A stretch of 8,480 nt of DNA from a virus (Duplodnaviria > Heunggongvirae > Uroviricota > Caudoviricetes), in the IMG/VR virus record IMGVR_UViG_648276668_000009, positions 1 through 8,480 of that record; one strand, written 5' to 3'. Position numbers and translations under genes: made by a program. Shown piece after piece: positions 7,152 to 8,439 of this stretch (position 1 is the stretch's first letter; each line of letters opens with the position of its first letter). The notes below the pieces were generated by a model that was not told where the DNA came from, did no database searches, and saw only the letters and a program-made list of their open reading frames with translations.

Positions 7152-7182
7152 TTTCTTACGTATAAACTGCTTCAATTTCGCT

Positions 7183-7186
7183 ATGC
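7183..7186. repeat. Left copy of 4-bp direct repeat (ATGC) flanking the IS, putative target-site duplication
   Basis: Seen: ATGC immediately left of the IS end (7183-7186) and ATGC immediately right of it (8436-8439). Confidence 0.5.
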
Positions 7187-7194
7187 TGAAGTGG

Positions 7195-8034
7195 TCAACA
7201 AAAACTGGCCACCGAGTTAGAGTTTTTCCAGTATCGATTTTCCGATTCGTTTGGGGGTAATCCACCGTTATATTCGTGCGGTCTTAGTGCGCTGTAATAT
7301 CCAACGATATAGTCCGTTATGGCGTGAGCTGCCTCGCTGAAGCTTACGTAACCCACCACCGGCATCCATTCGTTCTTCAGACTCCTGAAGAAGCGTTCCA
7401 TTGGGCTGTTATCCCAGCAGTTTCCGCGCCGGCTCATACTCTGCCTGATCTGGTATCGCCACAATAACTGCCGGAACTGCCTGCTCGTATAATGACTGCC
7501 CTGATCGCTGTGGAACATCACCCCGCCGGGCTTACCACGGGTTTCCCACGCCATTTCCAGCGCTTTCATGGTGAGCCTGCTGTCCGGCGAGAACGACATG
7601 GCCCAGCCCACTGGTTTTCTTGCGAACAGGTCGAGAACAACGGCGAGGTACGCCCAGCGCTTACCCGTCCAGATATAGGTCACATCACCGCACCACACCT
7701 GATTTGGCTCGGTCACGGCGAACTGCCGTTCAAGATAGTTAGGGATAGCAACATGTTCATGACCACCACGTTTATACCGGTGAGTCGGCTGCTGACAGCT
7801 GACCAGCCCCAGCTCTTTCATGAGCCTGCCAGCAAGCCAGCGTCCCATCTGGTAGCCTCTTCGGGTTGCCATTGTGGCGATGCTTCTTGCTCCGGCCGAA
7901 CCGTGGCTGATGCCATATAGCTCAAGTACCTGACTGCGTAATACAGTCCGTCTGCCGTCTGGTTTTTCAGGCCGGTTTTTCCAGTATCTGTAGCTGCTGC
8001 GATGAACCCCGAACACATGGCAGAGTGTGACCAC
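7195..8034 (-). CDS. insO: IS911 OrfB (DDE/rve integrase-type transposase catalytic domain), expressed as an OrfAB fusion by -1 frameshifting
   Basis: Seen: 279-aa ORF with 'WCGDVTY' and 'HSDQGSHY' motifs typical of IS3-family DDE transposases; its stop lies inside the left terminal IR. The frame is -1 relative to orfA. The symbol insO follows recalled K-12 nomenclature. Confidence 0.8.
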
Positions 8035-8060
8035 AGGATAATGCGCTCTGAGTTTCCCGA

Positions 8061-8363
8061 TTATCGAGAACTGTTCAGGGAGTCTGACATCAAGAGCGCG
8101 GTAGCCTTTTTTAATATTTCATTCTCCATTTCAATGCGTTGTAGCTTTTTCCTCAGCTCACGTATTTCGATTTGTTCTGGTGTTATCGGAGAGGCTTTTG
8201 GTATTTTGCCCTGACGCTCATCACGCAGTTGTTTGACCCATCTTGTCATTGTGGAAAGGCCGACATCCATAGCTTTGGCGGCATCTGCCACCGTGTAGTT
8301 CTGGTCAACAACCAGTTGAGCGGATTCGCGTTTAAACTCTGCGCTGAAATTTCTTTTTTTCAT
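8061..8363 (-). CDS. insN: IS911 OrfA (HTH and leucine-zipper transposase regulator)
   Basis: Seen: ORF track frame 8061-8399; start placed at the internal ATG (8361-8363, MKKRNFS...), the recalled IS911 OrfA N-terminus. Stop TAA at 8061-8063. The symbol insN follows recalled K-12 nomenclature for IS911 orfA. Confidence 0.8.
8106..8112 (-). other. Programmed -1 ribosomal frameshift heptamer A-AAA-AAG of the IS element
   Basis: Seen: the minus strand reads ...ATT TTA AAA AAG GCT... near the end of orfA (plus-strand T6 run at 8107-8112); the orfB frame overlaps here. A6G is the canonical IS911/IS3 slippery site. Confidence 0.7.
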
Positions 8364-8435
8364 TGGAGCACCTGTGTTGTTCTGAGGTGAGCATATCACC
8401 TCTGTTCAGGTGGCCAAATTCAGTGTGCCACTTCA

Positions 8436-8439
8436 ATGC
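8436..8439. repeat. Right copy of 4-bp direct repeat (ATGC) flanking the IS
   Basis: Seen: see left copy. Confidence 0.5.

Follow-up and report, generated by a model that had tools for sequence, protein, structure and literature searches.

IS911 appears to have transposed recently into the late-control cassette of a Rac-like lambdoid prophage of E. coli and to impair its late switching, a reading to which we assign a probability of roughly 0.58. The DNA in question is a stretch of 8,480 nucleotides (nt) from a virus (Caudoviricetes; IMG/VR virus record IMGVR_UViG_648276668_000009, positions 1–8,480), referred to throughout as the window. In the window, the gene for a Q-like late-gene antiterminator ends with a TGA codon at 7149–7151, and a complete insertion sequence (IS) begins after a further 35 nt (7152–7186). 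An earlier note, made from the letters of the window, had described this spacing and had put the IS at the usual lambdoid location of the late promoter PR' and the qut site, between the antiterminator gene and the lysis and late genes; both points agree with our analysis. It had also held that the IS separates Q from PR' and qut. Relatives instead put the -35 element of the predicted promoter on the Q stop codon, and its spacer and first hexamer within the 35 nt between Q and the IS. The predicted promoter therefore remains on the Q side, and the break falls within the cassette.

The insertion cuts a conserved cassette downstream of Q

To define the cassette we collected, in addition to the window, 343 loci that carry relatives of the Q-like gene, which belongs to the Pfam family DUF1133. 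The loci come from phage records, prophage contigs and genomes and, with the window, provide 106 distinct sequences downstream of Q. They form four clades (E. coli/Salmonella, Rac-SA53, Klebsiella and Providencia), with Q identity down to 42%. The pattern TTGnnn-N17/18-hexamer-N5-TAnnnT is found in 88 of the 106 distinct sequences and at 307 of the 344 loci. In these 88 sequences TTGnnn lies 17 nt upstream of the first hexamer (18 nt by the register of the pattern in Providencia). The first hexamer is TTCAAT in 70 of the 88 distinct cassettes; Providencia has TATAGT, Rac-SA53 has TATCTT and Klebsiella has TTGAAT, and in each of the four clades the hexamer begins and ends with an invariant T. 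The second hexamer reads TACGCT, TATGCT, TAAGCT or TAGGCT, 5 nt past the first, in 86 of the 88. Across the four clades this distance is 5–7 nt and a TAAGAT form also occurs, and the T, the A and the final T are invariant in 13 of 13 aligned representatives. In phage lambda, the pause element lies 6 nt past the -10 hexamer. Some relatives have a cassette that starts 77 nt past the Q stop codon or partly inside the gene, with its internal spacing unchanged. The Providencia version, TTGACT-N16-TATAGT, is near-consensus and scores 10 of 12 in a promoter scan.

The known order of elements in such systems is Q gene, PR', sigma-dependent pause element, terminator and late genes, with the Q-binding element adjoining the pause element (bioRxiv 10.1101/651190, Yin et al.). 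From the comparison we infer that the cassette downstream of DUF1133-type Q genes consists of PR', a predicted sigma-70 promoter (-35, spacer and -10), then a pause element at about +1, an early transcribed block and the terminator tR'. The roles given to the two hexamers, -10 for the first and pause element for the second, and the position of the start site, near 7183 in the window and 9575 in the closest IS-free relative, L001, are predictions that follow from this layout. The spacer measures 16–17 nt across the clades. Its 3' half is conserved inside each clade and changes from one clade to the next: E. coli and Salmonella have AYAAACTGY, Klebsiella has CAGAAACTGC, Rac-SA53 has AAGAAACGG and Providencia has GATAAAGT. 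By analogy with lambda, where the element lies between -35 and -10, this spacer motif is a candidate Q-binding element.

Two other assignments were considered, one with TATAAA at 7161–7166 and one with the second hexamer in the role of the -10; they were rejected for having no -35 at 16–18 nt or a 23-nt spacer. The invariant TTCAAT may be part of an extended -10 promoter, with the TG at 7168–7169, or may double as part of the Q-binding site. We also observed a second cassette class at seven loci (L318, L338, L340, L323, L313, L259 and L285), in which TTGACT overlaps the stop codon and is followed by N18-TATATT, a hairpin of its own and a terminator. This class accompanies a different Q C-terminus, suggesting modular swapping of the DNA-binding end of Q together with its promoter.

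In the window, the IS enters the pause-like hexamer between bases 5 and 6, which corresponds to about +4/+5 on the predicted transcript. Positions 7182–7186 read T, A, T, G, C, and position 7187, the first base of the IS, is a T that rebuilds the hexamer. Homology among relatives persists to about position 8463, roughly 24 nt past the insertion point, and the IS therefore lies inside the Q-linked module.

These data bear on the arrangement proposed in the earlier note, in which PR' and qut lie beyond the insertion and the IS merely separates Q from an intact late operon. IS-free relatives contain the uninterrupted junction, and it has the predicted promoter upstream of and across the insertion point and not beyond the IS. 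What speaks for the proposed arrangement is only the general lambdoid layout, together with the fact that the 41 nt after the IS (8440–8480) are part of the conserved Q-linked block. In relatives, however, the approximately 40–75 nt from the insertion point to the terminator contain no -35/-10 pair, the conserved geometry of -35, spacer and hexamer lies upstream of and across the insertion in the 88 pattern-bearing sequences, and it shifts as a unit where the cassette begins 77 nt past the Q stop. Moreover, Q is a diffusible protein, so that plain separation would matter little and cannot by itself uncouple it from its site. We therefore consider this arrangement very improbable.

The element is a complete and recently inserted IS911

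IS911 belongs to the IS3 family and was first described from Shigella dysenteriae. The element in the window aligns over 1249 of 1249 nt, at 99.9% identity, with elements annotated 'IS3-like element IS911 family transposase', and is a member of IS911 by all sequence criteria tested. Its terminal repeats are 27-nt imperfect arms, 74% complementary, with TG...CA tips. The orfA and orfB frames (phases 0 and -1) contain no stop codon, and an AUU codon at 8115–8113 precedes the slippery heptamer. It thus resembles known IS3-family elements of the IS911 type in its tips, its imperfect repeats of about 27 nt, the helix-turn-helix domain of orfA and DDE domain of orfB, the A6G site, the AUU codon and the short target duplication. 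The earlier description of a complete IS911-type element, with both inverted repeats, open orfA and orfB frames and flanking ATGC, is thereby confirmed. The transposase genes are directed at the Q gene, that is, against late transcription. The reference length of IS911 is 1250 base pairs (bp); the three copies discussed here are each 1249 bp.

The window was found whole, as an exact match, in scaffold GL884207.1 (assembly GCA_000176615.2), a draft scaffold in which it forms one contig between runs of 372 N before position 1 and 627 N after position 8480. In the coordinates of this locus (L004), the bounds are at 5294–5922 and 14403–14774. The letters of the IS could be a consensus of several genomic copies, so that the intactness of this IS911 copy is slightly less certain than it appears.

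To examine the target site, the empty site was rebuilt from the Q gene, its 35 nt with one ATGC, and window positions 8440–8480. This sequence is found at 100% identity over all 619 nt in several IS-free E. coli genomes. Given the single ATGC in these identical empty sites, the 4-bp ATGC duplication flanking the IS is genuine and not a chance repeat. Other assemblies contain the same prophage, with the same PARIS-like gene pair and hok/sok module, without the IS; one IS-free prophage (L003) is 99.96% identical to that of the window over 7.2 kilobases (kb), corresponding to about three differences. Among 5,426 complete E. coli genomes, not one had the junction between Q and the IS, and the other 343 related loci all lack an IS at this position; the right junction, searched for as an exact match in a single genome from each species, was not found. 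These comparisons indicate that the insertion is young and private to the source strain, in line with the recent simple insertion suggested earlier.

The same prophage in another assembly (L007, GCA_045610545.1) carries two further IS911 copies, each 1249 bp long, flanked by 3-bp duplications, ATA and GTC. As both of these copies have 3 bp, the 4-bp duplication in the window is of a less usual length for IS911. All three copies found in this prophage type are oriented against late transcription. The features discussed here are listed in Table 1.

Table 1. Coordinates of the insertion, the Q-like gene and the predicted late-control elements (window positions except in the last row)
Feature	Position	Strand	Remarks
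Q-like late-gene antiterminator gene	6609..7151	+	180 amino acids; DUF1133; Q21-like predicted fold
Predicted PR' -35 hexamer TTGATT	7148..7153	+	Overlaps the Q stop TGA (7149–7151); comparison-based
17-nt spacer TCTTACGTATAAACTGC with conserved motif ACGYATAAACTGC	7154..7170	+	Motif is a candidate Q-binding element
First hexamer TTCAAT	7171..7176	+	Predicted PR' -10; TG at 7168–7169
Second hexamer TATGC/T	7182..7187	+	Predicted sigma-dependent pause element; cut by the IS after base 5
Left ATGC target duplication copy	7183..7186		One ATGC at the empty site of IS-free relatives
IS911	7187..8435	-	1249 bp; 99.9% full-length identity to annotated IS911
IRR (orfB-side terminal inverted repeat)	7187..7213	-	27 nt; abuts the Q side
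orfB frame (DDE integrase core)	7195..8115	-	Open from AUU to the stop codon; rve E value 3e-32
orfA	8061..8363	-	100 amino acids; HTH_Tnp_1 E value 3e-13
A AAA AAG programmed -1 frameshift heptamer (A6G)	8106..8112	-	IS position 324
IRL (orfA-side terminal inverted repeat)	8409..8435	-	27 nt; faces tR' and the late genes
Right ATGC target duplication copy	8436..8439		One ATGC at the empty site of IS-free relatives
Displaced early transcribed block TTCGCAAAGCTGTATCGCGAGGCG	8440..8463	+	Predicted +5 to +28 of the PR' transcript
Variable linker to the tR' terminator	8464..8480	+	Predicted terminator just beyond the window end
L007 IS911 copies	4678-5926 and 12501-13749		Positions in L007; one in the Q-holin moron region, one in a DUF977 gene

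The early transcribed block, terminator and short RNA

Immediately past the second hexamer, the E. coli/Salmonella clade has a block of about 23 nt, TCGCAAAGCTGTATCGCGAGGC, that is nearly invariant in 27 sequence variants. Part of it recurs in Providencia, where Q identity is down to 42%. With the GC of the right ATGC added, the block can form a 7-bp hairpin with an 11-nt loop (GCUUCGC...GCGAGGC; window 8438–8463, positions 9577–9601 in the IS-free relative L001). The 27 variants show some wobble changes in this hairpin and a single compensatory one (TCGT/ACGA). The loop is conserved as well, so the constraint on the block appears to act at the level of sequence.

Downstream of the block and a variable linker, L001 has a 20-bp hairpin, AAAAAAACCACCTAAAGGTGGTTTTTTT, at 9620–9647. 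We take it for a strong intrinsic terminator lying some 70 nt past the predicted start; folded from that start to the end of the hairpin, the segment has an energy of -39 kcal/mol (z = -8.3). Of 101 distinct sequences of full length, 92 carry a hairpin with a T-run terminator no more than 150 nt past the Q stop. In the source scaffold, the sequence after the 627 N resumes in the terminator T-run; the tR' hairpin, with its homopolymer runs, corresponds to the gap after 8480, a segment of about 26 nt in relatives. IS-free relatives are thus predicted to make an RNA of about 73 nt, from PR' to tR', just past Q. Its sequence tracks the Q type. A search of Rfam returned no family for the PR'-tR' region and matched only sok. 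In lysogens, PR' is constitutive and gives a short terminated RNA (PMC7547250).

Between tR' and the holin gene, L001 contains about 2.1 kb of AT-rich DNA (9650–11776) with several minus-strand terminators and a DUF2441 gene on the opposite strand. A plus-strand terminator-like site lies immediately before the holin gene (11656–11672). We interpret this stretch as a moron-type insertion zone, probably within the late transcript.

The same stretch raises the question whether the hairpin after Q is simply the end of the early-right operon, with the late promoter near the holin gene; the insertion would then lie in dispensable spacer DNA and have no late effect. The 2.1 kb of moron-like DNA with its several terminators is compatible with such an arrangement, and so is the non-canonical first hexamer of the E. 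coli type. An operon end, however, would hardly explain why two hexamers in non-coding DNA are conserved at fixed spacing in four clades. The promoter scan gave no better promoter before the holin gene, and the terminator-like site found there fits a need for antitermination from upstream. Furthermore, Stx phages usually carry morons between PR'/tR' and the lysis genes (PMC7547250). A neutral insertion of this kind is unlikely.

Proposed consequence for late expression

We favour the reading that the split cassette impairs late switching. After the insertion, the promoter, the candidate Q-binding site and the rebuilt pause hexamer would remain beside Q, and from about +5 the PR' transcript would read the antisense strand of IS911 in place of the conserved block. 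The terminator, and every late gene beyond it, would be moved 1.25 kb further off. Pausing and Q loading at PR' would be weakened or lost, and unmodified polymerase would stop inside the IS or at tR'. The late operon would then no longer be efficiently switched on, and the short PR'-tR' RNA would be lost. Terminator-like sites are present on the strand of the IS that PR' would read, for example at 7959–7975. On balance, a substantial loss of Q-dependent late expression seems somewhat better than an even bet.

Several observations weigh against this reading. The pause hexamer is regenerated by the TATGC/T junction and the candidate Q-binding site is untouched, so Q might still load. The confidence of the Q model is only moderate (mean pLDDT 65), with a good C-terminal half. 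The promoter scan called the proposed promoter only in Providencia and missed it in the window and in the E. coli, Rac-SA53 and Klebsiella relatives; TTCAAT and TTGAAT lack the near-universal A at position 2, which accounts for the miss at the first hexamer, and the assignment of -10 and pause element could accordingly be wrong. The literature searched contains no mapped transcription start for any DUF1133-type cassette. The terminator of the source strain falls in the assembly gap and its presence is predicted from relatives. Q-modified polymerase passes terminators over long distances. Q-loaded complexes ignore both pause sites and terminators (bioRxiv 10.1101/651190). Finally, the Shigella phage Sf6 lives with a copy of IS911 in the early-right (nin) region, where the element runs opposite to the late genes of the phage (PMC5630979).

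These points allow an outcome in which Q loads, polymerase reads through IS911 and tR', and the prophage stays inducible, with late expression perhaps delayed or weaker. Such tolerance would be in keeping with the restored hexamer, with the identity of all sequence upstream of it to that of IS-free relatives, with the indifference of Q-loaded complexes to pause sites and terminators, and with the intact lysis genes downstream in the source scaffold. Sf6 itself, with its IS911 intact, is a viable phage whose lysis is only delayed in comparison with deletion mutants (PMC5630979). The Sf6 copy, however, lies in the early operon, outside the qut region. In the window, IRR sequence has taken the place of the block after the hexamer; the near-invariance of that block in 27 variants, part of which is shared at 42% Q identity, argues that the block is needed. 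The lambda pause uses sequence downstream of the -10-like element. We regard tolerance as possible, though we would not expect it.

The earlier note had also suggested that the IS could supply outward transcription. A promoter scan of both strands of 6900–8480 gave no promoter-like site. Only a single outward-facing element has been described in IS911, a -35 located in IRR (PMC9330008); here, IRR faces the Q gene and points away from the late genes. Two hybrid promoters were considered and set aside: the IRR -35 (TTGACC) with TTGAAG in the flank as -10, which is poor, and TGGCCA-N18-AATGCT at the IRL junction, which is weak. Neither is called by the scan. An unmodified transcript running from the IS towards the late genes would probably meet tR' about 40 nt on, with no Q-binding site upstream. 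We found no support for IS-driven late expression.

The Q-like protein and its genomic setting

The open reading frame list gave a start at ATG 6489 (220 residues), which would overlap the entire 3' end of the ybcO-like gene. We rejected this start, as homologues give GTG 6609 and a protein of 180 residues; the GTG overlaps the ybcO-like stop codon (GTGA). The protein matches Pfam DUF1133 at an E value of 1e-106, and Phage_antitermQ (PF06530) at 26.5 bits over 73 residues, a borderline match to a cut-off of 26. With phmmer on PDB sequences, the chains of phage 21 Q (Q21) rank top, with a non-significant E value of 0.34. When an AlphaFold model was compared with the PDB using Foldseek, the top eight matches were all Q21 (probability 1.00, TM-scores 0.52–0.69), and the next match had an E value of about 5.

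In relatives as in the source scaffold, the DUF1367 and YbcO genes precede Q, and the holin, lysozyme and Rz genes come after it, which places Q between nin-type genes and the lysis cassette as in lambdoid phages. The Rac-like prophage also carries sieB, ydaS/T, kilR and trkG; downstream of Q, the source scaffold has intact lysis genes and an intact trkG. In IS-free relatives, the lysis and structural genes lie about 2 kb past the late-control cassette. The label 'Q-like' is thus well supported by predicted fold and position. A Q of the DUF1133 type was found in about 30% of the complete E. coli genomes searched (1,658 of 5,426). We found no promoter or functional study of DUF1133, Rac-SA53 or the conserved block in the literature searched.

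The closest known relative by fold is phage 21 Q, of the Q21/Q933W family (PF06530). The likeness consists of PDB fold matches exclusively to Q21, the marginal match to PF06530, an equal genomic position and the same cassette logic. In contrast, sequence identity to phage 21 Q is about 15%, and the protein belongs to a different Pfam family, DUF1133. The binding element of Q21 has two 8-bp subsites arranged as a direct repeat (bioRxiv 10.1101/651190); we recognised no direct repeat of this type in the DUF1133-type cassette.

A broader proposal would be that DUF1133 proteins form a widespread branch of antiterminators with the Q21 fold and their own cassette, made up of the invariant non-canonical TTCAAT, a TAnGCT pause element and the near-invariant hairpin block of about 23 nt, and that IS911, by landing in the pause hexamer and rebuilding it, has split the DNA part of qut (Q-binding site and pause hexamer) from its transcribed part. 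We put this forward tentatively, as a doubtful conjecture. If it were true and Q still loads, the IS would be carried through by antitermination; constitutive PR' would then also drive antisense RNA over the transposase genes, damping the IS copy, and the lysogen would lose the RNA of about 73 nt.

Comparison with known late-control systems

The proposed cassette resembles the PR'-qut-6S RNA-tR' region of lambda in its position just after Q, its predicted promoter, its -10-like pause element, the conservation of the spacer, the predicted short terminated RNA and the late genes beyond. It differs in its Q protein, which shows no relationship to lambda Q and has a Q21-like predicted fold, in the length of the predicted RNA (about 73 nt, against 194 nt in lambda) and in its non-canonical TTCAAT.

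With Sf6, the window shares an intact IS911 in a lambdoid or P22-like genome, directed against phage transcription; in Sf6 the element slows the cycle and is tolerated (PMC5630979). The Sf6 copy, however, interrupts a dispensable nin gene upstream of Q, whereas the copy in the window cuts the predicted pause element downstream of Q.

A short RNA from an antiterminated PR', as predicted for the IS-free relatives, recalls RNAs of the StxS type (PMC7547250). Unlike StxS, the unit is split by the IS in the window and the RNA is a prediction; there is no relationship between the two in sequence or in Rfam.

IS elements are known to insert into the regulatory regions of prophages, and since insertions that inactivate or domesticate prophages are common, the present one is ordinary. 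The comparison of several hundred relatives locates the likely late promoter, pause element and terminator of DUF1133-type Q. In the window, nature provides an allele of a qut-like site with its promoter-side half set apart from its transcript-side half, and this allele can serve to probe whether the early block is needed for Q loading. For the host strain, the insertion bears on whether a prophage with a PARIS-like pair and hok/sok is locked in place.

Neighbouring modules

The PARIS-like pair lies on the minus strand at 2244–4402 of the window, between the DUF977 gene and hok/sok. It consists of an AriA-like ABC ATPase of 427 residues (PADLOC AriA, E value 1e-39) and an AriB-like protein of 292 residues (E value 2e-12). 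In L001 the same slot holds a different protein, a P-loop NTPase of 816 residues, and the slot therefore looks like a defence hot-spot in Rac-like prophages. The hok/sok module occupies 4929–5254, where the sok RNA matches Rfam RF01794 at 104.9 bits (4929–5101) and a 51-residue Hok reading frame spans 5099–5254.

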